DNA of 35,659 nt from an uncultured archaeon (lineage in GTDB: Archaea > Asgardarchaeota > Lokiarchaeia > Sigyniarchaeales > SOKP01): assembly GCA_964508365.1 (NCBI GenBank), contig CAZDTP010000042.1, forward strand, positions 1 to 35,659, read 5' to 3'. A model generated the notes under the pieces. That model ran no database searches, had not been told where the DNA came from, and saw nothing but the letters and a program-made list of their open reading frames with translations. Shown here one piece after another: positions 19,025 to 32,003 of the stretch (the first letter of the stretch is position 1; each line of letters begins with the position of its first letter). The position numbers and the translations under genes were made by a program.

Positions 19025-20512
19025 ATGAGCTATAAATTAGCAGATGATAAGGATTTAGACGCGATGATTGGTATTGTAGGAAAAGAGTATGCCACCAATA
19101 ACAAGGCAATTACAGCGTCATATCTTTCCAAATCTGTAATGGGATTAGAGTCACAAATTCCTGATATCGTCGTACGCCCCAAATACATTGAAGAAATTCG
19201 TAAAATTCTACTTTACTGCTCTGCAGAAAAAATTGCAGTCTCACCGATTTCAGCCGGACTATCAGGCGGCTTTGCGTGTCCAACTATTAAGCCTGCGGGA
19301 GTTATGCTTGATTTAGGTAGAATGAATAGAATTATCGAAGTCGATACAGATAATCGATACGTCGTAGTCGAACCGGGAGTCACGATTGGAGAGCTTTGGG
19401 CTTACATGCATAAAAATTATCCAGAGTGGGCGCCTCCCGTACCAGACGGTGCTCCACCAGCTTCTACCGTAATGGGTGATGCTATCGATCGAGGGTTTTC
19501 CCTTTATACTAGCTCCGTTGGTCCACAAGGTGATAACTTCATGTGCGGTGAAATAGTGTTTCCAAACGGAGATATTGTGCGAACTGGTTCTTGGGCTCTT
19601 CCATTTGCGAAACCGTTCTATAAATATGGATTAGGTCCAGATATCTGGTCCTTTTTAATGGGTTCACAAGGAGCTTTAGGCGTAATGACTAAAGTCGCAG
19701 TTAAAATATATCCTCATCCAAAATTTAAGACTGTGGTTGTGTGGGGTATGTCCAATCCTGAGGATATGCAGAACCTAACACTAGAAATAGGAAAACAAGA
19801 ATTTGGAATTGCTCACAACACCGTTATGGTTCAAGGTGGGAATTATCCTTTAGTAATGACGCGTTGGCCAAAGGATAAAGTTCCTCACGATTATGAATTC
19901 TACGAACAGTTAGGAATTAGTAGGTGGTGGATGAATTGGGAGTGCTGGGCACAAACTCAAGAAGAGTTAGATTATGTAGTTAATAGAATCAATAAAATGG
20001 CTGAAGATTTCAAGAAAAATAGAGCTAAAGACCCTGATAGTATAAAACCTCAGGAACTACATCCCAAACAAATCGCTAGCAGATTGAAGAAACCCAATAA
20101 GATTGCAGTTCCTTATTCTTTTTGGGAGGCAGGATTTTTATTCATTACGTTCTATACCCCATGGAACGAATGCGCCCATTTTGCTGAAATGTATACTGCT
20201 GCTATGGAGAAATATGGTTTTCCACCAGTCATGTGGATTGCTAGTATTGAACGTTGTAGACAAGCAATTTGTATGCCAATTATTTGTTTCGATAGCACAA
20301 AACCATCAGATTTCGAAAAAGTTCAAGAGATGAATAGAGAAACAACAGAATACGCGCTTAAGCAAGGGTGGTTGAATTATCGTCCAGATCCATACATCCA
20401 CGCACCTCTCACTTATTCTCAAGCAGGAATGTATTGGAAATATTTGAGGATGATAAAGAAGATGTTTGATCCTAATCAAATTATGCATCCTGGGAGGCTT
20501 GCTCTTCCATAA
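19025..20512 (+). CDS. FAD-binding oxidoreductase, VAO/PCMH (GlcD-like) subunit
   Basis: PDIVVRPK...E, MLDLGRMNRIIEVD, VVEPGVT, GEIVFPNGDIVRTGS, GSQGALGVMTK, FDPNQIMHPGR. Confidence 0.88.
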   Translation: MSYKLADDKDLDAMIGIVGKEYATNNKAITASYLSKSVMGLESQIPDIVVRPKYIEEIRKILLYCSAEKIAVSPISAGLSGGFACPTIKPAGVMLDLGRMNRIIEVDTDNRYVVVEPGVTIGELWAYMHKNYPEWAPPVPDGAPPASTVMGDAIDRGFSLYTSSVGPQGDNFMCGEIVFPNGDIVRTGSWALPFAKPFYKYGLGPDIWSFLMGSQGALGVMTKVAVKIYPHPKFKTVVVWGMSNPEDMQNLTLEIGKQEFGIAHNTVMVQGGNYPLVMTRWPKDKVPHDYEFYEQLGISRWWMNWECWAQTQEELDYVVNRINKMAEDFKKNRAKDPDSIKPQELHPKQIASRLKKPNKIAVPYSFWEAGFLFITFYTPWNECAHFAEMYTAAMEKYGFPPVMWIASIERCRQAICMPIICFDSTKPSDFEKVQEMNRETTEYALKQGWLNYRPDPYIHAPLTYSQAGMYWKYLRMIKKMFDPNQIMHPGRLALP

Positions 20513-20520
20513 CTGAGTAA

Positions 20521-20526
20521 GGAGGT
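20521..20526 (+). promoter_or_regulatory. Shine-Dalgarno GGAGGT
   Basis: 8 nt upstream of ATG 20535. Confidence 0.6.
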
Positions 20527-20534
20527 AAAAAAAA

Positions 20535-21890
20535 ATGGCTAAAACTGGAATGGAAAGATTAAAAGAATTAGAAAAGGAAATATATAAGTGTATCCATTGT
20601 AAAGCTTGTAGGTTTGCTTATTCGGGAGAGCCTAGTAGAGCTGGAATAGGGGAATTCACTGGAAAACAAGGTACAGTTCTTTACGAAGGAATGCTTGACG
20701 CGTGTCCTGCTGGAATAGAATACGGTTGGGAAGCATTTTGGAACGCTGGTAAAATTTGGATTGCTCGTTCAATTTTAAGCGGAGATTTAGAATTTTCTGA
20801 TGAAGTAAGGGATGTGATTATGCCGTGCATTACATGCGGACAATGTTCAGCCCAATGTGATAATAAAATACCCACAGTAGACATCATTGAATCTTTACGG
20901 GCTGCGTGTATAGAATCAGGTGTTCCTATGATTGAGAAACATCAATTAGTCGATCGCCTAGTCAAGGAATTAAACAATCCTTACGGCGGAAAGGCAAATG
21001 AACGATTTAAATGGGCGAAGGATGCCGGTTTAGGAAAATATATAAATAATAAAAACGCTAAAATTGGATATTATGTCGGTTGTACTGCTAGCTATCGGCA
21101 AATAGAAGTTGCAGTCGCTACAGCAAAAATTTTTGAACAATTAGGAATAGATTTTACATTAATCGAAGAAGAAGTGTGTTGTGGAAGCCCCTTCTTTAGA
21201 ATCGGCGCCGTTGATACTGCCCAAGAGTTAATGAGGAAAAATCTCGAGGCTTTTAAGAATTTAGAAACGGTCTATTTCTCATGTGCAGGTTGTTATCGGA
21301 CTATAACGATTGATTATCCAAAATGGATGGCAGAAGACGAGAAACTCCCTTTTAAAACCATGCATGCATTTGAATTAGTTTCAAAATTAATCACTGAAGG
21401 AAAGATTAAATTCAAACCTAATAAAGAACTCAAGGGAAAAGTTGTAACATATCACGATCCTTGCCATACTGGAAGACATTTTGCGCTTGACATGGAACAA
21501 AAAATGATCAAGAACTCCAAGAACCTAATGTTTGATATGCGCAAGGTAGACAAAGCGATCGACGAATGGTTTGAAATTCCTAGAGTTATTTTACGGAAAC
21601 TTGAAGAAGATGTCGGGATTAAGTTTACTGAGATGTATCGTATAAAAAATAATTCGATGTGTTGTGGTGCTGGTGGAGGAGTTAGAGCAGGTTACCCTGA
21701 ATTCTCAATACGAACTGCAAGTCTGCGATGCGATGAAGCTAATGCAGTAGGAGCAGATATTTTGACAACTGAATGTCCTTTTTGTTGGAGGAATTTAAGC
21801 GATGCTAATGATCAGTATAATCATGGTATGCAAGTAATGGGCGTTCTGGAAATGATCTCTAAATACAATTTATTAGATATAATCTCTTAA
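20535..21890 (+). CDS. Fe-S oxidoreductase, GlcF/HdrD/GlpC-like (2x[4Fe-4S] + two CCG domains)
   Basis: CIHCKAC...CP, CITCGQCSAQC, YVGCTA, VCCGSP, FSCAGC, YHDPCHTGR, MCCGAGGG, TECPFC. Confidence 0.9.
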   Translation: MAKTGMERLKELEKEIYKCIHCKACRFAYSGEPSRAGIGEFTGKQGTVLYEGMLDACPAGIEYGWEAFWNAGKIWIARSILSGDLEFSDEVRDVIMPCITCGQCSAQCDNKIPTVDIIESLRAACIESGVPMIEKHQLVDRLVKELNNPYGGKANERFKWAKDAGLGKYINNKNAKIGYYVGCTASYRQIEVAVATAKIFEQLGIDFTLIEEEVCCGSPFFRIGAVDTAQELMRKNLEAFKNLETVYFSCAGCYRTITIDYPKWMAEDEKLPFKTMHAFELVSKLITEGKIKFKPNKELKGKVVTYHDPCHTGRHFALDMEQKMIKNSKNLMFDMRKVDKAIDEWFEIPRVILRKLEEDVGIKFTEMYRIKNNSMCCGAGGGVRAGYPEFSIRTASLRCDEANAVGADILTTECPFCWRNLSDANDQYNHGMQVMGVLEMISKYNLLDIIS

Positions 21891-22090: not shown

Positions 22091-25000
22091 TTGACTAACG
22101 TGGAAAATAAGACGGCTTACCCATATATAACAGAATTTAAAAAGGAGCCGTTTAAGTCTTTTGTTTTAACAAATAGAAAGGATATCGGTAATTTCTATTT
22201 AAGTAATTACAATAATGTTCTAGAATTATATCAGGATCATAATAAGAACTTAATTGAAGAATCGTCTTTAAGTTTGGAGGATATTTTTTGGTTTCTCCTT
22301 CTGAGGAAATATCTCAAACAAAAAGTGGACGACCATAGTGAAGGTTTCTTAGAATTTATAAAAAAGTGTGAAGTTGAGATAATTGAAAAAGATCAATTGG
22401 GATTCAAATCATCGCCTTATTCAGTAAAAAGACCTGATATTTGGTCAACATACCATGCTCTAGCAAGTTTAGAATTATTAGGAGTGCTCCAAAAGTACTT
22501 ATCGTCTAAAGGCCAAGATATTGTTATTGAAGAAATTAAGAATTTTATTTATGATCATAAAAGAAATAATGGATTCTTACATTGCCTTGACAAACAATGC
22601 GAATTATGTAATCAAGGACCTTTAGGAAAGACTTTTTACTATGTTGTTGAAAATCTCATGCTTATCGGTGTTGATGTAAGGGTTTTCATAGAGCAATTCC
22701 GTCAATATTTAAGAGAAAGAAAAAAAGATGTATCATTAATTTTTAAACTCCTCAGTTTAAAATTCTTTGATTTAGATTCAGATGTAAAAGATAAGGAAAT
22801 TCAGCATTTCTATCAATTTCAACAGGCAAATGGAGGTTTTGTCATAGATTCAATTGAAGGAGATATTGAAACTACATTTTGGTGCGTAAATCTTCTAGAT
22901 ATATACTCATGGCTTATAGATTACAACTCAGCAAGAATTTATTCTTTTATCGCTGAGAAATTAGACTCATTATTGAAAGATAAAGAAAGATGGAATTTAA
23001 TCGCGTTAAGAAATGTTACTAAACTAGTAATCTTGCTATCTATTATCTGGAATCGTTTTATCGAAGAAATCGAAAGAGTCGTATTTAAGCGGTTAGAGAT
23101 TTATAATTTTATCGATTTAAACCAGATAAAAACTACCTTTGGGTTAAACCATGGAGTAGAGGAGATTGTACTCTATATCAACCTCAATTATATGTTTAGT
23201 TTGAAGAATATCGATATTACTTCGGAATTTAATAAATACCTACAAAATTTAAGTCATGGTAAAAAGATAATAATCCAAGAAGTTTACGAACAATTAAGAA
23301 ATAATAGTATTGTATCACTTTCGGATATTTACAAAAAATATAAAAGTTCCTACCAACAGGAACCTGTGAAATTAAAAGAAGACATCTTTCCGATCATATA
23401 TGACTTAATAAGCAACCACTTTTTTGAAGGGGAGATCAGAGCAAAAAAGGCTTATTTATTCAAAACAAAATTCTACTTTTGTTTAGATTTTTTATACAAA
23501 AACATAATTATTTCCGATAAGGAAATTAACACCGAAAGATTGTTTGAAGAAAAAGCTAAACTGAAGGAAATTAAAAATGATATTTACAATATGACTTTGA
23601 AGCTTAAAAACACTATCCCTCTTATCAAAGAAGAAATAGAATCATATCTTTTGATAGACGAAGTTGATTTCGCTAAACAAAGGTTGAAGTTTGTATTGAG
23701 AGATTCATTAATGGAAGCAGATTTTCTTAATAAAAACATTGAAACATCTTTCAATCAAGATCTTATATACATCAACCTACAAGCTGCTTTAGGTTCTGAA
23801 ATATCTCAATGGAACAAGTCATACTCTTTATTGCAAAAGCGTTTAGGTGAATTAAATAATTATCTCCTAGAAAAGATCCAAGAGATGGAAAAATTAAAAA
23901 AATTTAGCATTATTTTAGACGAACTAGATAATAGAATATACGATATTCAGGATCAGATAAATCGCGAGATAGATTCTTTTAAAAATTACATTACGGAAGT
24001 TCTTGAGAAGGGTTATGATGAAGAAAAATTAAATCTTATTATAAATGCATTTAATAAAATAGCTCAGGTTGTAAGCAAATACGATTCAGTTATTTACAAA
24101 GTCTCGCATCAAATTACATCTAAAGAGAAAAAGATTGCAAAGAACCATAAGAAAATAATATATAAATGGGTTAATTTTAAAGAGAACTTTGATTTGATTT
24201 TTGCTGATTATACTAATGGTTTTCAGTTTTTCAACGAATTAAATAGACAGATAGGAAATGTTAAAGATAATATACAAGAAGGAATTTTGCAAATTAAAGA
24301 GGACGCTAAAAATAGTGCGTCTCAAAATCAATATCAAGACGCATTTAATATTATCAAGATGGAAGCGGATAACCTACTAAAAGAAAAAACAAAGGAAATT
24401 CAAAGCTTAAAATTAAATGTTAAAAAAAACACTTCCTTTAAACAGAAACTATTCCCGCTTTATAAATATATAAATGAAAAGCTCGACAGTCTGGAAGAAA
24501 ACATTATTGAGTTCATAGCCGAACAGGAGCAATTTTTAAAAGAAAAGGTTATAGAAGAAAGAAATAGAGCAAGTGTTGAGGATTTTGATAGTTTTGTTTC
24601 CGATACTATCCAAAATTTTAAGAATAAGTTAGAAAATTACAGGAAAAACATTGAGCAAAACAAAACAAATAAAATTCCGAATGTTATTAGTGGTTTTGAT
24701 GCAATTCTAATTGATTTTAACGAAAATAATAAGATTTTTTCTAAAAAGCTAATAAATCTAAAAATCATTATCCCAGATCTTGATGAAAGTTCGATAAAAA
24801 TAATACAATGGGAGAAATTTAAAGTTTTTATTAGTGATGAAGTTGATAAACTGAAGGAAGAATATGTGAATGGCATTATTTCTCAAGAAATTATACTCAT
24901 GAGTGAGGAGGAGCACACAGACACAATTAGTATAAAAAAACTAGCCGATAAGCTAAAAATCAAATGTAAAGCGATAATTCCAAGAATTAAAGACATGATA

Positions 25001-26503
25001 GAGGTGTCTAAATTGCAAGGTGATTTACTTGAAGATAAAAAAGAACTAATAGTTCACACTGAAGCTTATCATAAATATAGAGAATTAAAAAATTTTACAG
25101 AAAATAGAATTATTAAGCAAACACAAGAGGCAGTAGGAAAATTATTAGCCCTTTACGATTCGTGTATAAAAAACAAAACTCTTGGAGTAAATTTATTAGA
25201 AATTGAGAATAGAATTAAAGATTTAAGTGATTTGAAGGAATCTATTACCAACCAATACAACACTAAGACAAAAGAGTTAAATGTTGACGAGAATAGATTA
25301 GAGAATATGGAACTGATTAAGAATCTAAAAGCGGTTATAGATAATAATGAGATAGCGATTTTGAATATAAAAGAAAATTTAGTGATTTTTGAGGACTTAC
25401 AAATATTCATTGTCGATGTGTTAGATAATGTAAAAATCGAAATAGAAAACCAACTAACTAAAACTTTTGATAATGTTGAGAGAGCTGAGTCCCATGCAAA
25501 GATGAGGGAAATTCTTGAAGGGAGAAAGGAGCGTGTTATAATTAGACTAAAACAGGTTGACGAAAAAATCGAGAATAGATTGAAATCGATCATTAGTATA
25601 TCTTATGAATCAAGGAAATTTGAGACCGAAGCGAGAGAATTCTACGTTAAGAAAAAGAATGTGATTAAAAAAAGAGTAGAAGAAAGAGTTCAAGCAATAA
25701 ATGATAAAATAAATTCTTTAAGGTTTGAGACGGATCGAGGTAAATTATTAACCACGATTACCAACAAAAATACCCATTTATCTCAATTATTAGGAACATT
25801 GCAGACGAGGGTTGAAGATTATATCGAAACAGGGCAGTATAAGAGAGCCTACTTAAAAGTTAGTAAAAAAAAGGTCTCTATCGAGCAGGAAATTAAAAAT
25901 ACAAGTAAAGAAATAAAAGATTTAATTAGGACATTTAACCGAAATTCGAACGATTTCGAAACCAAAAATATTCACATCATAGATGATTTTAACCGCTTTA
26001 TTAAAGAATTTAACGACATTTTAAGAGAGAAAGTAAACACATTAGAAGAATTAATCATAAAGTCATATGTAGAAATGGCAATAAAAGCCGTTGCTAATGA
26101 ATTCTTAACCTTAAGTTTCTTGCAGAATGAATTGAAGATAAAAAAACCACTTATTCAAAAAAACCTAATTTCTCTGATTAGTGCTGGAAAATTGAAAGGG
26201 AAATACGATCCTCAGATCGGTTTATACTACGAAAACCCGGAAGTTCTGAATAAGCTTGATGAAAAAGAGTTAGAAGTTATAAAGAAAATGAATTTCCGTG
26301 TATATATATTTATGAGGCGTTTAAAGAATTTTACAAACCAATATGGTTCCATTATTGCTTTCTTTGCATCTCTCCTTACAATATCTTATTATATCTTCCG
26401 AATTACAGGAGAAAACCCAATTACGATAATGATTCCTATTATTTTGACATTAGTAGTACTTGGTTACCTTCTCTTTAAGAAAAAGAAAGATGAAAAGATT
26501 TGA
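22091..26503 (+). CDS. 1470-aa multidomain protein: prenyltransferase-like repeats, winged helices, long coiled coil, PCI-like winged helices, C-terminal 2-TM anchor
   Basis: LGF...PDIWSTYHALASLELLG, KRNNGF, FQQANGGF...GDIETTFW; heptad-rich res ~480-1330; TISIKKLADKLKI...MIEVSKLQG and LTLSFLQNELKI...LISAGKLKGKYD; two hydrophobic helices then KKKK. Confidence 0.8.
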   Translation: MTNVENKTAYPYITEFKKEPFKSFVLTNRKDIGNFYLSNYNNVLELYQDHNKNLIEESSLSLEDIFWFLLLRKYLKQKVDDHSEGFLEFIKKCEVEIIEKDQLGFKSSPYSVKRPDIWSTYHALASLELLGVLQKYLSSKGQDIVIEEIKNFIYDHKRNNGFLHCLDKQCELCNQGPLGKTFYYVVENLMLIGVDVRVFIEQFRQYLRERKKDVSLIFKLLSLKFFDLDSDVKDKEIQHFYQFQQANGGFVIDSIEGDIETTFWCVNLLDIYSWLIDYNSARIYSFIAEKLDSLLKDKERWNLIALRNVTKLVILLSIIWNRFIEEIERVVFKRLEIYNFIDLNQIKTTFGLNHGVEEIVLYINLNYMFSLKNIDITSEFNKYLQNLSHGKKIIIQEVYEQLRNNSIVSLSDIYKKYKSSYQQEPVKLKEDIFPIIYDLISNHFFEGEIRAKKAYLFKTKFYFCLDFLYKNIIISDKEINTERLFEEKAKLKEIKNDIYNMTLKLKNTIPLIKEEIESYLLIDEVDFAKQRLKFVLRDSLMEADFLNKNIETSFNQDLIYINLQAALGSEISQWNKSYSLLQKRLGELNNYLLEKIQEMEKLKKFSIILDELDNRIYDIQDQINREIDSFKNYITEVLEKGYDEEKLNLIINAFNKIAQVVSKYDSVIYKVSHQITSKEKKIAKNHKKIIYKWVNFKENFDLIFADYTNGFQFFNELNRQIGNVKDNIQEGILQIKEDAKNSASQNQYQDAFNIIKMEADNLLKEKTKEIQSLKLNVKKNTSFKQKLFPLYKYINEKLDSLEENIIEFIAEQEQFLKEKVIEERNRASVEDFDSFVSDTIQNFKNKLENYRKNIEQNKTNKIPNVISGFDAILIDFNENNKIFSKKLINLKIIIPDLDESSIKIIQWEKFKVFISDEVDKLKEEYVNGIISQEIILMSEEEHTDTISIKKLADKLKIKCKAIIPRIKDMIEVSKLQGDLLEDKKELIVHTEAYHKYRELKNFTENRIIKQTQEAVGKLLALYDSCIKNKTLGVNLLEIENRIKDLSDLKESITNQYNTKTKELNVDENRLENMELIKNLKAVIDNNEIAILNIKENLVIFEDLQIFIVDVLDNVKIEIENQLTKTFDNVERAESHAKMREILEGRKERVIIRLKQVDEKIENRLKSIISISYESRKFETEAREFYVKKKNVIKKRVEERVQAINDKINSLRFETDRGKLLTTITNKNTHLSQLLGTLQTRVEDYIETGQYKRAYLKVSKKKVSIEQEIKNTSKEIKDLIRTFNRNSNDFETKNIHIIDDFNRFIKEFNDILREKVNTLEELIIKSYVEMAIKAVANEFLTLSFLQNELKIKKPLIQKNLISLISAGKLKGKYDPQIGLYYENPEVLNKLDEKELEVIKKMNFRVYIFMRRLKNFTNQYGSIIAFFASLLTISYYIFRITGENPITIMIPIILTLVVLGYLLFKKKKDEKI

Positions 26504-26521: not shown

Positions 26522-28066
26522 TTATTCTTTTCTTTTTTTAAGTAAGACAAATTTTGTAATAAGTAGAGAACTTAAAGTTATGATATATATGATGCTCCAA
26601 AGAACGATGTAAATTTCTATATTAAGATACCAGATTGGGTTTTTCAGATCGTTAAAAGTGTGTACTTCGTTCGTCATAATAAAAGTCGTCCCTAAGCACC
26701 AGAGTTGACTGAATCTTTCGATACTATCAATTGTATAAACCATAACAGGGAGATTGTGTAAATAAAATGATCTATATAATTCATTAGAGTATTCATCCCC
26801 CGTTTTGATAATTGTATAATTATATTCAGACATTTCGAATTCTTCTAAGGAAGGATTAGATCTCATATCCATGCCTAATAAAATATCAGTGGCATTTTTT
26901 TGGTTAATCAAATCAATCCATTCAGCGTCGCTAGTGAAAATCATAACTTTTGTTAAATCAATTCCCGATTCGAGTGTTTCGTTCATTATTGTTTCAAAAT
27001 ATACTTCACTATAGAGATGGCTTGATGATGGTAATTTAGTATCGAAATCTATATAAAAGCCATTATCTCTTGTAAAATTTAAAACTTCTTCAAATGTTGG
27101 AATTTGTATGCCCCTGTAATTTTCTCCGTCTTCTTTTGAAATACGACCAAAAGCTAAAGCCCCGTATGGATCTTTGTCCGCAAACCAACTACCAGCGTCT
27201 AATTGTCTTAGTTCAGAAAGCGTGAATGTTTCAGCGCGATCGTTCTTTCGATTTGGAAAAATATCCTCTACATCAGTGGTTCGAGTGAGAGTATCATCGT
27301 GCAGTAAAAATAATTCTCCGTCAATAGAAATTCTTATGTCGACTTCCCAACCAACAGCCCCGTGTTCTACTGCTAATTCTCCCGCTACGATAGTATCTTC
27401 TGGGGCTAAATGCGATGCACCTCTATGTGCTATAATGTTGGGTTTGGGAGGTAGATCGCCGAAAATCACATTTGAGGGGATAAACAATAGCGGAGACGCA
27501 AAAGCAAAAAAATATCCAGTAATTAAAAGTCCTAAAATAACATTTGACTTTATTTCTACATTTAATATCCTATTTGATAAATGACCTTTCCATTGTGGGA
27601 TTGATTTTATCAAAGGATATAAGCCCAAAATAAGTAAGAGTGAAAGGGGTATTGTAAAAAATATACTATAAAACTCAATAACTTGAGGAATTAATCGGGA
27701 GTATTGTTCTAAAGAGTATAATAATAATGCGAATAGACTTGAATATATGAACATTAGAACTATTGGTATAATTTTATTTAGGATACAAGGTTTAATTTCG
27801 TTATTTTTTTTAATATTCCTAAGGTGTATGTGAAAAATCGCTACTCCATAAAGTAGCGGAAGTAAGAGGATTACGATAATTAGAAATACAAGATTTAAAT
27901 CAAAGCCAATATAATCAGAGACTATTAAATTAATATCTCCCCAATATACATGAAAAATTAGCATTATCGATTCTAAAATCATCATGTTTATGATTAACAT
28001 CAAATCACATAGCAACCACTTTTTTCCTTTTATTTTTTGAAGCATATTGAGTAACATCATTTTCAA
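26522..28066 (-). CDS. Six-TM glycerophosphodiester phosphodiesterase (5 TM + GDPD + 1 TM)
   Basis: IIAHRGASHLAPEDT, WEVDIRISIDG, LLHDDTLTRTT, LDAGSWF, IPTFEEVL, LWCLG; TM pattern. Confidence 0.9.
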   Translation of the reverse strand: MKMMLLNMLQKIKGKKWLLCDLMLIINMMILESIMLIFHVYWGDINLIVSDYIGFDLNLVFLIIVILLLPLLYGVAIFHIHLRNIKKNNEIKPCILNKIIPIVLMFIYSSLFALLLYSLEQYSRLIPQVIEFYSIFFTIPLSLLLILGLYPLIKSIPQWKGHLSNRILNVEIKSNVILGLLITGYFFAFASPLLFIPSNVIFGDLPPKPNIIAHRGASHLAPEDTIVAGELAVEHGAVGWEVDIRISIDGELFLLHDDTLTRTTDVEDIFPNRKNDRAETFTLSELRQLDAGSWFADKDPYGALAFGRISKEDGENYRGIQIPTFEEVLNFTRDNGFYIDFDTKLPSSSHLYSEVYFETIMNETLESGIDLTKVMIFTSDAEWIDLINQKNATDILLGMDMRSNPSLEEFEMSEYNYTIIKTGDEYSNELYRSFYLHNLPVMVYTIDSIERFSQLWCLGTTFIMTNEVHTFNDLKNPIWYLNIEIYIVLWSIIYIITLSSLLITKFVLLKKRKE

Positions 28067-28196
28067 ACTTGGAATCTTTAATTTAATAATAAAATAATCT
28101 TTTTTTATTGATAAAAGGATTTAGAGGATTAATTATTAAAAACAAAAAAATTTCTATTTATCTATTTATAGCTTTAATCTTTGTTATTGAGCATAT

Positions 28197-29729
28197 TTAT
28201 CTGCTTTTTTTTAGTTTATGTCTAATAATATCGATTGAACTTAAAGCTATTATGCAAATCGCAATCCAGATCGTGATGTAGGAAAGAATAGGGAAGAATA
28301 AAAAGTTACTCTCCAAATCGTTAAACTTATAGGGGGAATTAGTCTTTACCCAATCCACTCCCAAACACCATAATTGATAATATCTTTCGACAGACTCGAT
28401 TGTCCAAACCATAGTATCTACATCAGCTGTTTTTAAAGCTCTATATTCATCATTGGAGTACCCATCACCTGTATTAATATATGTATAATTAATAGTAGAA
28501 GATTGAAATTCTTGCGTTGTTGGTGAACCAGGCCATCCCAATTGTATCTCAGGAGCGGAATTATTTATCATTTCTATCCATTCGCTATTTTCTGTTGGTA
28601 TCATTACTTTACCTAAATCCATACCTGATTCTATCGTCATGTTTAAAAGAATTTCGTAGAAATCATCATAATATGGATGACCTACTGAGGGTCTATCTGC
28701 ATCAAAATCTAAAAGGTAATCGTTATCTCTTGTGAAATTTAACACTTCTTCAAAAGTGGGAATTTTAATGCCTCTGAATGATTCTGCGGTTGCTTTTGAG
28801 ATTATTCCACTAGCAATAACTCCATAGGGATCGTTATCTACAAACCATGATCCAGCGTCTAATTCTCTAAGTTCTGAAATATTGAATGTGTAAGCCTTAT
28901 CATTTTTTCGATTTGGAAAATGTTCAGAGATATTAGTTGTTCTAGTGAGAGTATCGTCGTGCATTAAAAAAGGAACGCCATCAAAGCTGATTTGAATATC
29001 AACCTCCCATCCTACAACTAAATCATATAAGAGAGCCGCTTCACCTGCTTCGATTGTATTCTCGGGAGCAAGGTGCGAGGCTCCCCGGTGAGCTATTAAC
29101 TCTGGTTTAGGTGGTAAATCGTAAAATAATACATTAGATGGAATAATAATAAAAGGTATTGTATAAGTAATTACATATCCTCCTATTATGCAAGTTAATA
29201 TGATCATCCATTTTCTATTTGCTTTTATGAGTTTATTTGATAAATTTTCCTTTAATTGTGGTATTATCTTAAGTATAGGGTATAAAATCATTATGAGAGC
29301 AATATCTAGTCCAAGAAATATAAAAAAGCTATAAAATTCTATACTTTGAAATATAACATTTGCGTATTCTTCAAGAAAATCAAGTAAAATTACAATAAGA
29401 AGATTATAAATGATTATTAAAATAATTGGTATAATTTTATGGATGATATGAGGTTTAATTCTATTAGTTTTTATTATTTTTCTTAATTTAATAGTTAATA
29501 GTGATAAACCATAAATCAACGGGATTATAATAATAATACCAATGATAAGAACGATATTAATCTTAAAATCAACCCAACCCGAGAATGTTGAATTAATGTC
29601 TCCCCAATATGGTTCAAGTAAATAAATGTACGTCATAAAAATCGCAAAATTTACGCAATATATGCTATAGAGAATTATCCATTTTTTTCCTTTTCTTCTT
29701 AGAAATGAGTTGATATCCATTTTTACCAT
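28197..29729 (-). CDS. Six-TM glycerophosphodiester phosphodiesterase, tandem paralog
   Basis: LIAHRGASHLAPENT, WEVDIQISFDGVPFLMHDDTLTRTT, LDAGSWF, IPTFEEVL, LWCLGVDWVKTN; colinear with the neighbour from the N-terminal KGKKW onward. Confidence 0.9.
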   Translation of the reverse strand: MVKMDINSFLRRKGKKWIILYSIYCVNFAIFMTYIYLLEPYWGDINSTFSGWVDFKINIVLIIGIIIIIPLIYGLSLLTIKLRKIIKTNRIKPHIIHKIIPIILIIIYNLLIVILLDFLEEYANVIFQSIEFYSFFIFLGLDIALIMILYPILKIIPQLKENLSNKLIKANRKWMIILTCIIGGYVITYTIPFIIIPSNVLFYDLPPKPELIAHRGASHLAPENTIEAGEAALLYDLVVGWEVDIQISFDGVPFLMHDDTLTRTTNISEHFPNRKNDKAYTFNISELRELDAGSWFVDNDPYGVIASGIISKATAESFRGIKIPTFEEVLNFTRDNDYLLDFDADRPSVGHPYYDDFYEILLNMTIESGMDLGKVMIPTENSEWIEMINNSAPEIQLGWPGSPTTQEFQSSTINYTYINTGDGYSNDEYRALKTADVDTMVWTIESVERYYQLWCLGVDWVKTNSPYKFNDLESNFLFFPILSYITIWIAICIIALSSIDIIRHKLKKSR

Positions 29730-29840: not shown

Positions 29841-32003
29841 TTAGTCATAATCCATAATGAATTCTACGGTATCAGTATTTCTTTTAAGGTAGCCTAAATG
29901 GCATGCTTGATTAAAATGGATGTAAAATTTCTTATCTATAATATCTTCCTCTTGTGCAAATTCTTTAAAATCAGAAAGCGGCATTTTTCCATCTACGCTA
30001 TAAGTATGAGCAATTTTTATTAGCGTTTTTACATTTCTATTTAAATATATTTTTCTTTCTGTCATTTTCTTATTCTTTTCTTTTTGATTTAATTTTAATT
30101 TTAACATAGAAGTTTTCAATTTCGATTTATCCAATCCAATTACATCAGAATAAAAAGTTACACCCACGTCTTTAAACATTTTAAATTCTTCACTGTGGGC
30201 AAAGTTATCAAGTTCTGTGATAATTTCTTCTATTGATCGATCCGCAAGTAGTTCTTTTTCCCTTTCTCTTCGTTCTCGATAGTTTTTAATTAAATCGACT
30301 TCTCGAAACTTATTTTGATCTAATTCAAAGCAGATTCTCTCTCGATTTTTAATATTGTATAAATCTAACTGTTTTGAATCTAAAAGCACACAATTCATAG
30401 TCGATTCCTTTCTATCTGCAGCTTTATAAAAAGGGACATCAATAGATTGTCTGGCTATTAATAGATAGCACCTCCCTGGTCCATATCGGCCCGTTCTACC
30501 GCGTCTTTGGATTAATCTAATCTCTGAGGGAACGGGTTCGTAAAAAATAATTGCGTTCACATTTGGAATGTCAAGTCCTTCTTCTGCAACGCTGGTGGCT
30601 ACAAGTATATCTAGCGTTCCTTCTTTAAATTGTTTAATAATTTCAATTTGCTTATCTTGCGAAAATCCTAAATCATCTGTTTTGGATGATTGACCGATAA
30701 ATTTTTCAACTTTTAAGAGAGAATCAAAGCGTTTTTCTATTAAACTCTTTAATAATTCAGCCATGTCTCTGTATTGCGTGAAAATGATGATTTTATTGTT
30801 TCGATAATCTTCGATTTCTTCAGTAATTATTGAAAATAACTTTTCTATTTTAGGATGTGAATATTCATTAATGTTATTCTGTATTAGATTGTTTTTGATA
30901 AATTTGAAGTGTTCGGAGTTGACGATTCTTTTAGCCGAAAGTATGTCTTGATCGGATTTGTATTCAATTTTTTCTAGAAATTTTAAAAATAGCGTAATAT
31001 TTTGAGATTCCAATAAATCTTTACCGTGAAGTAAACTTATAAAACTTGAGCAATAAGAGAAAATCGATTGAACATTTAAAGAGTTTTCTTTAACTAAATC
31101 TCTTATTCGATCAGTCTTAAAATAGAGTGCACTGAAATAATCCTCTTCAGATAGTTCCGGTAAATAGCCGTTCTCGTACTTGAGAGAAAGTGTCAAATCG
31201 CGAGATATCCCTAAGAAATCTAATTTAGAATAATATCTTTTGTTAGGGGGTAATAATTTTTTGTCAATAAAAAATTTTAGAAATTTTTCAAACAAGTTAT
31301 ACCAGACTGCGCTCAGTTCAATTACTTTTACGGGTAAATCGACGAACTCTAAATATGTATCGATATCGTATATATACTGTTTTACATCTTGGTCCTCGTA
31401 CGTTTTGAAAATTACATTTTCAATAAACAAATTATTACATAATTGCTGTATGTGAAAATAGCTTTTTCCTGGAGATGCGGTTAATCCTAAAATGAGAGGA
31501 TCTTGGCATGTATTGAGATATTCGTTCGATATAAAACAATACGAATAATTACCTCTCGTTCTGTGAGCTTCGTCAAAAATAATTAGAGAAACATGCTTTA
31601 AATCGTATCTACCTCTTTCTACATCATTTCTTATTATCTGAGGTGTTGATATAATAATTTTAGAGTTATTAAAGTGAATAATCCTTTTTTCAGGCGATAT
31701 TCTACCCGTAAACGAAATAATCTCATTTGGTTCAATGTTAAGAAATTCCTTACATGACGCTTTATGTTGCGAAACTAAAGGTCTAGTGGGAGCAAGAATA
31801 ATAATTTTAGATTCAGGATATTTTTCTAAAGCCTTACCTACAAGTAAAATACCAATAATCGTTTTTCCTAAACCAGTTGGTAAAACTATTAAAGAATTTC
31901 TTCCTTTACACCTTTTTATTATATTATTTTGATACTGTCTATACAATACTCGATTTTTTTTTAAAAAGGGATGATTAAAATATCCAGAAACTTCTGTTTG
32001 CAT
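29841..32003 (-). CDS. hef: Hef/FANCM/Mph1-type SF2 DEAH helicase, apparently without the ERCC4 nuclease
   Basis: RQYQ, LPTGLGKT, FDEAHR, GLTASPG, IIFTQYRD, ATSVAEEGLDIP, QRRGRTGR. Confidence 0.88.
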   Translation of the reverse strand: MQTEVSGYFNHPFLKKNRVLYRQYQNNIIKRCKGRNSLIVLPTGLGKTIIGILLVGKALEKYPESKIIILAPTRPLVSQHKASCKEFLNIEPNEIISFTGRISPEKRIIHFNNSKIIISTPQIIRNDVERGRYDLKHVSLIIFDEAHRTRGNYSYCFISNEYLNTCQDPLILGLTASPGKSYFHIQQLCNNLFIENVIFKTYEDQDVKQYIYDIDTYLEFVDLPVKVIELSAVWYNLFEKFLKFFIDKKLLPPNKRYYSKLDFLGISRDLTLSLKYENGYLPELSEEDYFSALYFKTDRIRDLVKENSLNVQSIFSYCSSFISLLHGKDLLESQNITLFLKFLEKIEYKSDQDILSAKRIVNSEHFKFIKNNLIQNNINEYSHPKIEKLFSIITEEIEDYRNNKIIIFTQYRDMAELLKSLIEKRFDSLLKVEKFIGQSSKTDDLGFSQDKQIEIIKQFKEGTLDILVATSVAEEGLDIPNVNAIIFYEPVPSEIRLIQRRGRTGRYGPGRCYLLIARQSIDVPFYKAADRKESTMNCVLLDSKQLDLYNIKNRERICFELDQNKFREVDLIKNYRERREREKELLADRSIEEIITELDNFAHSEEFKMFKDVGVTFYSDVIGLDKSKLKTSMLKLKLNQKEKNKKMTERKIYLNRNVKTLIKIAHTYSVDGKMPLSDFKEFAQEEDIIDKKFYIHFNQACHLGYLKRNTDTVEFIMDYD

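Follow-up and report, generated by a model that had tools for sequence, protein, structure and literature searches.

A single-copy Lokiarchaeial protein family that joins a prenyltransferase-like toroid, PCI-type winged helices and spectrin-like rods to a predicted membrane hairpin

What kind of protein is encoded at positions 22091–26503 of a contig from an uncultured Lokiarchaeial archaeon, and what might it do? The gene lies on the forward strand of a 35,659-nucleotide stretch, hereafter the window, which is contig CAZDTP010000042.1 of GenBank assembly GCA_964508365.1 (Lokiarchaeia; Sigyniarchaeales; SOKP01). An initial annotation, made from the letters alone, had taken the product for a tail-anchored scaffold of golgin-like geometry. 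Computation resolves this product, which we call the rod protein, into five parts, made up of a toroid head, four winged helices, about 800 helical residues arranged as rods, and a C-terminal transmembrane (TM) hairpin. We lean, if only slightly, towards reading it as a membrane-anchored ruler or scaffold of fixed length on the cytoplasmic face, with a head that would bind and not catalyse. The gene and its parts are as follows, with the source of each assignment in brackets.

22091–26503, forward strand: the whole rod-protein gene, an open reading frame (ORF) of 1470 codons plus stop.
22109–22162, forward strand: conserved N-terminal peptide, residues 7–24 (KTAYPYITEFKKEPFKSF), predicted to be disordered (conservation).
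22196–23062, forward strand: head, residues 36–324, a prenyltransferase-beta-like alpha/alpha toroid (Pfam, AlphaFold2 (AF2), VIA structure search, Foldseek).
22580–22609, forward strand: HCx4Cx2C loop, residues 164–173, a probable structural zinc knuckle that may bind metal, possibly together with C93 (22367–22369).
23117–23242, forward strand: winged helix 1 (WH1), residues 343–384, small and reduced (AF2 secondary structure).
23255–23515, forward strand: WH2, residues 389–475, canonical and net basic (AF2 topology H-S-H-H-S-S-S).
23531–24913, forward strand: Rod 1, residues 481–941, four spectrin-like three-helix bundles (AF2, VIA).
23621–23800, forward strand: residues 511–570 (EADFLNxNIExSFN...YIN), with a non-helical break at 554–567 (conservation, AF2).
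24914–25060, forward strand: WH3, residues 942–990, of PCI/DDRGK type, between the rods (AF2 S-H-H-S-S, core 945–988; Pfam PCI).
25061–26089, forward strand: Rod 2, residues 991–1333, three spectrin-like three-helix bundles, net basic (AF2, VIA).
26093–26245, forward strand: WH4, residues 1335–1385, of PCI type, predicted to sit next to the membrane (AF2 core 1338–1380; Pfam PCI).
26246–26344, forward strand: juxtamembrane helices, residues 1386–1418, with a conserved ELEVIKKMNF and a basic RRLK.
26345–26482, forward strand: TM hairpin, with TM1 at 1419–1437, a GENP turn and TM2 at 1445–1464 (Kyte–Doolittle).
26483–26500, forward strand: basic C-terminal tail KKKDEKI, probably cytoplasmic by the positive-inside rule.

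Is the rod protein a member of a known family? ORF analysis places its start at TTG 22091 or GTG 22100, and a database protein identical to it, P0002, has 1467 residues. Between the upstream gene and the rod gene come an oligo-T run and then a 200-bp AT-rich spacer, an arrangement that suggests a transcription unit of its own. In Pfam and NCBIfam scans, no family spanned the protein as a whole and no ATPase, SMC or hinge family was found within it. An SMC-like identity was rejected on the same grounds, with no Walker A/B ABC-type ATPase head and no hinge family matched; the annotation had named membership of a known family such as this as grounds for refutation, and NCBIfam gave no match for the protein. 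A search of PDB sequences with the whole protein gave no match, profiles of the family gave marginal matches only (RabGGTase beta at E = 8e-4; DDRGK1 at 0.016), and full-text literature searches on Asgard archaea with PCI, prenyltransferase, spectrin or coiled coil yielded no description of the family. The rod family is unannotated, and its 1470-residue member in the window is a real, unnamed protein.

How widely is this protein shared? A word-indexed search of 5.8 billion proteins returned 193 relatives, the best 120 of which are 46–100% identical to it. Full-length members are colinear and 1460–1504 residues long; among the matches listed, all named sources are Promethearchaeota/Lokiarchaeota-type metagenome-assembled genomes, and nearly all of the proteins are deposited as 'hypothetical protein'. 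When 1.84 billion representatives were searched exhaustively by profile, only 79 hits emerged, about 50 of them family members or fragments and the rest generic PF00432 proteins. Scanning one genome per species located 146 encoding loci, and tblastn produced a single end-to-end alignment at 42–95% identity in 79 of the 80 that were retained. Across 399 Asgard genomes, a profile of the C-terminal part matched 133 of the 134 genomes of the window's own family, normally with one copy per genome, and 8 of 18 from other families of the order, with no match outside the class. Divergent orthologues missed by the rod profile were recovered by the head profile. These include the orthologue in genome G138 (a frame of about 1487 residues), which apparently belongs to the cultured 'Candidatus Lokiarchaeum ossiferum'. 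The family is specific to Lokiarchaeia and single-copy.

Length is almost constant across the family. In all of 45 aligned sequences, WH1, WH3 and WH4 have exactly 42, 49 and 51 residues, respectively, Rod 1 spans 458–465 residues and Rod 2 342–346, and no more than 15 sites in the whole alignment carry a small insertion with respect to the window protein. Even orthologues at 21–25% identity in other Lokiarchaeia measure 1471, 1473, 1487 and 1490 residues. Segment lengths this close to invariant are unusual for coiled-coil tethers and argue that the geometry itself is under selection; their near freedom from indels fits a rigid ruler and not a flexible dimeric coiled coil.

Alongside these orthologues, other families of Lokiarchaeia carry shorter, divergent paralogues of 1231–1318 residues and one of 931 residues (L091:8784–12494, forward strand, on contig C2 of genome G128, and P0177, P0181 and P0182). 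Genome G128 has both a 1473-residue orthologue and a 1236-residue paralogue that, in the alignment, seemingly lacks WH4 and most of the anchor. The locus closest to the window, L001 (DATKTW010000086.1), is 95% identical and was deposited as 'Candidatus Nanopelagicaceae bacterium', an actinobacterial label; judging by its content, the contig is almost certainly Lokiarchaeial and was misbinned or mislabelled.

Which fold does the head adopt? The degenerate prenyltransferase-type repeats that had been read at about residues 85–275 turn out to be part of a complete toroid. PF00432 matches residues 48–166 above its cut-off (E = 2.6e-7; 30.8 bits against 26.5), a match that covers only about 120 of 304 profile positions. 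An AF2 model of residues 1–500, built from a 71-sequence alignment, reached a predicted local distance difference test score (pLDDT) of 90 and a predicted template-modelling score (pTM) of 0.87. In this model, a toroid of 12–13 helices, a long connecting helix (303–338), WH1 and WH2 are packed into one unit. VIA, a structure search independent of Foldseek, aligned the toroid with the beta subunits of GGTase-I, GGTase-III and FTase at Z = 19.6–22.0 (root-mean-square deviation (rmsd) 2.9–3.6 Å over 246–270 residues, 15–17% identity), with class II terpene cyclases at Z of about 15, and with glycosidase or thioester-domain toroids at Z = 12–14. The best Foldseek matches are the RabGGTase/GGTase-III and FTase beta subunits (E = 2.4e-5 and above), and RabGGTase beta is also the family-profile sequence match noted above.

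Ahead of the toroid, within the first 24 residues, runs a nearly invariant peptide, AYPYITEFKKEPFKSF. P11, Y12, F16 and K17 are invariant in the family alignment and residues 9–24 nearly so, AF2 pLDDT falls below 50 at residues 1–15, and the core EFK.P.[WF].[PS]F is retained in the most distant orthologues, at 21–25% identity. A search for stand-alone head modules among shorter proteins returned only gene fragments, and an ESM Atlas search with residues 300–580 returned only the rod protein's own cluster. The window's genome (G000) does encode another PF00432 toroid, its third, in a stand-alone 379-residue frame (E = 1e-11; contig C1:18287–18814, forward strand).

Does this head transfer prenyl groups? 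It shares with the beta subunits of protein prenyltransferases the alpha/alpha toroid over the whole barrel and repeat motifs of the PFTB type. It differs from them in a shorter barrel, in the position of its HCx4Cx2C loop and in its fusion to about 1150 more residues and a membrane anchor, and above all in the catalytic site. The canonical Asp-Cys-His zinc site is absent from the C-terminal repeats of the head: by sequence comparison, neither Cys nor His is conserved anywhere from residue 174 to residue 480 of the 45-sequence alignment, and where RabGGTase, in repeat register, carries its zinc-ligand motif PDVCYSWW, the family shows variable residues, then TTFW. Invariance among Cys and His is confined to C93, H164, C165, C170 and C959; position 173, at the end of the loop, is C, D or H. 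The loop is kept in family f1 and in the G142 and G128 orthologues and is deleted in those of G135 and G138. It is therefore not an essential catalytic centre, a role that we rejected for it, and is probably a structural zinc knuckle. In the window's genome, whose completeness is scored at 100%, a search for an alpha-subunit gene (PPTA, PF01239) gave nothing above cut-off, the best match reaching E = 0.003 and 20 bits, although a very divergent subunit could escape such a search. Because the Asp-Cys-His site is absent and the loop is lost in some orthologues, the head looks non-catalytic.

The winged helices number four. The pair that had been noticed in the N-terminal part of the protein was recovered by AF2 as the reduced WH1 and the canonical WH2. 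WH1 has no significant Pfam match, and WH2 carries a mean net charge of +7.7; in the divergent paralogue P0177, the region equivalent to WH2 matches PCI (E = 8.5e-4). The two segments annotated as fitting a PCI pattern (24914–25057 and 26095–26230) are indeed canonical winged helices, with PCI as the top family in both. For WH4 scanned alone, PCI scored 24.4 bits (E = 3.3e-5) against a 22-bit cut-off, and 56 of 61 family members match it (best 3.3e-7) with essentially no competing family. In conservation, WH4 and residues 511–570 of Rod 1 rank above every other stretch of the protein, with column entropies of 0.64–0.86 and 0.68–0.73, respectively, compared with 1.2–2.1 elsewhere. WH4 persists in orthologues at 21–25% identity, and PCI is the only precomputed Pfam family in f3-type orthologues. 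The WH3 signal is weaker: PCI is its best Pfam family in the window protein (16.9 bits, E = 0.0075), and among the 61 members 27 match PCI and 19 match DDRGK (best E = 6.4e-7), with no match to DDRGK (PF09756) at E up to 0.05 for the window protein's own WH3. The best PDB sequence matches of the WH3 profile are DDRGK1 (E = 0.016–0.036) and then cullin winged helices; the WH4 profile gave nothing useful among PDB sequences.

WH1, WH3 and WH4 have almost no net charge, with about +1 on the third helix of each, so DNA binding is not suggested for them. In the Pfam scans no generic helix-turn-helix (HTH) family competes with PCI for WH3 or WH4. The annotation had itself named generic HTH regulators, an N terminus without an alpha/alpha barrel and an SMC-like family as the ways in which it might be wrong; what we found is PCI ahead of HTH, a toroid at the N terminus and no SMC relationship.

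In Foldseek, the best matches of the C-terminal model are the PCI subunits of the proteasome lid, eIF3 and CSN, with E-values no better than 4e-3 to 0.1 and a large rmsd. The rod protein shares with these subunits (PF01399) the PCI signature of WH4 and, more weakly, of WH3, each preceded by helical bundles. It differs in having several winged helices in one chain and a membrane anchor, and it has no known MPN partners or horseshoe assembly. DDRGK1 (UFBP1), the endoplasmic-reticulum (ER) membrane adaptor of the UFM1 ligase UFL1, offers a second, marginal similarity as a membrane-anchored helical protein with a PCI-like winged helix; it is N-terminally anchored and has about 314 residues, compared with 1470 for the rod protein.

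How are the roughly 800 helical residues between these modules folded? The annotation had proposed about 850 residues of heptad-rich helix forming a long coiled coil. The helical content is confirmed and the coiled coil is not, as AF2 folds the helices back on one another into seven three-helix bundles of about 105 residues each: four (482–941), then WH3, three more (991–1333), then WH4, the juxtamembrane helices and the hairpin. The model of residues 481–1470, from a 66-sequence alignment, has a pLDDT of 81 and a pTM of 0.36, values that make its local structure credible and its global shape not. Rod 1 consists of helices 482–521, 525–553, 568–640, 644–673, 680–743, 748–781, 785–856, 862–893 and 902–941, and Rod 2 of helices 991–1027, 1035–1063, 1070–1131, 1135–1168, 1178–1236, 1250–1285 and 1294–1333. 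Long helices (59–73 residues) alternate with short ones (29–36) at a period of about 105 residues, and none is longer than 73. Rod 1 is net acidic (–7.0) and Rod 2, which adjoins the membrane anchor, has a mean charge of +7.9. Within the conserved stretch 511–570 of Rod 1, A543, F545, N547, N549, I550, E551, F554 and N562 are invariant.

In spectrin-type repeats, the final helix of one bundle runs on as the first helix of the next. Rods of this type were the best VIA matches, with plectin spectrin repeats 7–8 at Z = 12.6 over 217 residues, beta2-spectrin repeats 14–16 on Rod 1 at Z = 12.3 over 311 residues, the four-repeat alpha-actinin rod 1hci_A on Rod 1 at Z = 11.2 over 425 residues (model residues 1–453), and the three-repeat beta2-spectrin fragment 6m3p_B on Rod 2 at Z = 10.0 over 281 residues (model residues 523–835), all within the range that common helical arrangements can reach (Z below about 13). 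The spectrin Pfam family matched none of the rod segments even at E up to 10. Because of these two results, we claim for the modelled rods a geometry shared with spectrin-type rods and not a shared descent; the resemblance is likely to be convergence. Two units of Rod 1, 568–679 and 785–901, are detectably related (hhalign probability 85%, E = 6.7e-6, 90 columns), so internal duplication accounts for at least part of the rod.

Like the rods of spectrin, alpha-actinin and plakins, then, those of the rod protein are tandem three-helix bundles of about 105 residues linked by continuous helices, and its C-terminal membrane anchor and cytoplasmic rod recall the nesprins. Unlike spectrin-repeat proteins and nesprins, it has no spectrin Pfam match and no CH, SH3, EF-hand or KASH domain, its anchor is a hairpin, and winged helices are inserted between its rods. 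The golgin-like geometry of the initial annotation is not supported by these results: in the model, helices of at most 73 residues pack within the chain, rods of spectrin, plakins and alpha-actinin match best, and lengths are nearly free of indels.

On which side of the membrane does this body lie? Kyte–Doolittle windows of 1.68 and 2.63 mark 1419–1437 and 1445–1464 as the only hydrophobic segments of the protein, in line with the C-terminal TM hairpin that had been annotated. The sequence of TM1 is conserved, and the hairpin is retained in distant orthologues. Because the protein has no signal peptide and positive charge flanks the hairpin on both sides (RRLK and KKKKDEK), the body of about 1400 residues should be cytoplasmic, which supports the earlier placement of a membrane-anchored body in the cytoplasm.

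How might such a protein work? The domain anatomy, its conservation, its spread among lineages and the missing canonical catalytic site come straight from the computations, and what follows on topology, rigidity, length, ligand binding and a scaffold role is inferred from them. In the mechanism that we propose, the two-helix hairpin would anchor the rod protein at the cytoplasmic face of the cell membrane and, as the anchor is synthesized last, would be inserted post-translationally. Outward from the membrane would follow WH4, the basic three-bundle rod, WH3 as a joint and the acidic four-bundle rod, and at the distal end two winged helices packed on the toroid, capped by the disordered N-terminal peptide. 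The protein would be a rigid, fixed-length spacer or scaffold that reaches roughly 35–50 nm when extended, an estimate that allows about 5 nm for each spectrin-type repeat. For the toroid head and the N-terminal peptide we envisage binding of a ligand or partner instead of catalysis of prenyl transfer, and for the PCI-type winged helices a role as joints for protein docking or self-assembly.

Several points weigh against this proposal. The relative orientation of the bundles is uncertain at a pTM of 0.36, which makes both rigidity and length tentative, and the rods' Z-scores of 10–12.6 are of a size that common helical arrangements can reach. The conserved toroid residues W67, F263, W264, W274, Y278, R197, K224 and K235 would also fit an active lipid-binding or non-canonical catalytic pocket.

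A more far-reaching version of the scaffold, which we regard as unlikely, would make the rod protein a prokaryotic membrane skeleton or ruler. Here, a spectrin-like rod on or along the inner membrane face would couple the membrane to lokiactin, or to another membrane or particle, through the head and the PCI joints and would help to shape the protrusions of 'Ca. L. ossiferum'; the head and PCI winged helices would share ancestry with their eukaryotic counterparts.

Lokiarchaeia are Asgard archaea that can be cultured and imaged and that have an actin cytoskeleton and elaborate protrusions. To our knowledge, almost nothing is known of linkers between their membrane and internal structures. The rod protein is near-universal and single-copy, and it combines near-invariant segment lengths and a conserved anchor with modules otherwise typical of eukaryotic machines (a protein-prenyltransferase-beta fold, PCI winged helices and spectrin-like rods), which makes it a concrete candidate for such a membrane linker. 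The apparent orthologue in 'Ca. L. ossiferum' makes the idea directly testable, and even if the protein is a mere lineage-specific scaffold, the unannotated family merits a name and a profile model.

Do neighbouring genes point to a function? One neighbour alone is strongly conserved.

29841–32003, reverse strand: convergent Hef-family helicase, given as context (NCBIfam NF010337, E = 5.7e-159).

This Hef neighbour scores 530.7 bits, below the 610-bit equivalog cut-off, and has 720 residues against a 781-position profile. In 58 of 62 loci the gene directly downstream of the rod gene, in the opposite orientation, is a Hef gene, and most of the gaps measure 17–153 bp. Hef still adjoins the rod gene in G135 and G142, in which the rod protein is 23–25% identical, and the pairing is broken in G138 and G128. 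In the window, two tandem multi-TM GDPD genes (26522–29729, reverse strand) stand between the two, as they do in L009, L075, L046, L062 and L077; because Hef directly abuts the rod gene in most relatives, the GDPD pair is a lineage-specific insertion. On the other side, the annotation had counted two prenyltransferase-repeat proteins within 8 kb, on opposite sides of the membrane, and had raised co-occurrence with the ABC operon of the other, extracellular one. The proximity is real in the window and is not conserved: an ABC-toroid gene lies within 10 kb of the rod gene in only 7 of the 41 loci with enough upstream flank, and the second toroid is therefore a local coincidence and not part of a conserved system. 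A pair of FAD and CCG genes adjoins the rod gene in only 14 of 54–63 loci. With linkage this poorly conserved, neither the ABC operon nor the FAD/CCG genes qualify as functional partners.

Four other explanations have to be set against the scaffold. The protein could be a membrane-tethered enzyme, its toroid an active prenyltransferase or terpene-cyclase-like domain working on isoprenoid lipids or proteins and its rod serving only to position the head. Archaeal membranes are isoprenoid-based, the structures nearest to the head are specifically those of catalytic beta subunits of protein prenyltransferases (Z = 19.6–22, with PF00432 above cut-off), and the head has retained a Cys/His cluster along with conserved aromatic and basic residues. 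Yet the Asp-Cys-His site is missing, residues 174–480 contain no conserved Cys or His, the Cys cluster sits in a different loop that G135 and G138 have deleted, no PPTA alpha-subunit gene was found above cut-off, and PF00432 covers well under half of its profile; we consider an enzyme unlikely. A golgin-like tether, in which parallel dimeric coiled coils would capture vesicles or another membrane, seems to us very unlikely. The rod protein's intramolecular three-helix bundles, modelled at pLDDT 80–90, its helices of at most 73 residues, long and short alternating at the ~105-residue period with spectrin-type rods as best matches, and its near absence of indels, unlike fast-evolving coiled-coil tethers, all speak against such a design, despite the tail anchor, the long helical body with heptad-like periodicity in many windows and a globular head at the far end, potentially able to bind lipid.

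The two remaining alternatives start from the winged helices. In one, the rod protein would serve at the membrane as the receptor of an assembly resembling UFL1/DDRGK1 or a PCI complex, and would use its winged helices to recruit a tandem winged-helix partner or some large particle, for example the ribosome or the proteasome. This would account for the DDRGK matches of 19 of 61 WH3s and for DDRGK1 as the best PDB sequence match (E = 0.016) of that domain. The same genome also encodes a 790-residue tandem winged-helix protein with PCI, E3_UFM1_ligase, DDRGK and VPS28 matches, and structure-based Ufm1 homologues have been reported from nine Asgard clades (PMC12962969). All of these similarities, however, involve a single small fold and, in the window protein itself, are marginal, a search of the window's genome with the Ufm1 Pfam profile (PF03671), the only form of Ufm1 search made there, gave no match at E up to 0.01, and the rod gene and that of the 790-residue protein are unlinked, on different contigs. 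We think a receptor of this sort quite unlikely. The other alternative, an anchor joining the chromosome to the membrane or associated with DNA repair, is highly improbable. It takes the tail-to-tail Hef pairing of 58 of 62 loci, kept next to the diverged rod genes of G135 and G142, as a functional tie, and winged helices can bind nucleic acid, WH2 being basic (+7.7). Convergent genes are not co-transcribed, however, and the pairing fails in G138 and G128 and is interrupted by the GDPD insertion in the window; WH1, WH3 and WH4, near neutral and with third helices at about +1, match PCI and not DNA-binding HTH families. The fixed-length scaffold on the cytoplasmic face is the reading that we retain.

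Two further observations concern other genes of this genome. The 790-residue protein (L093:4044–6416, reverse strand; G000 contig C1, about 154043–156415) has N-terminal Cys-rich motifs resembling zinc ribbons and at least four tandem winged helices, with Pfam matches to PCI (5.7e-22), E3_UFM1_ligase (1.4e-16) and DDRGK (3.2e-15) and a C-terminal VPS28-like domain (5e-6); from these matches it seems to be an Asgard scaffold of an ESCRT-related or UFL1-like kind. In the window itself, the GlcD-like FAD-binding and CCG/4Fe-4S genes upstream of the rod gene (19025–21890, forward strand) encode proteins 94–97% identical to copies elsewhere, for example in L014, in genomes whose rod proteins are only about 52–87% identical. 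The G+C content of this region is about 0.40, compared with about 0.30, and the similarity of the copies points to either extreme constraint or recent exchange among Lokiarchaeia.

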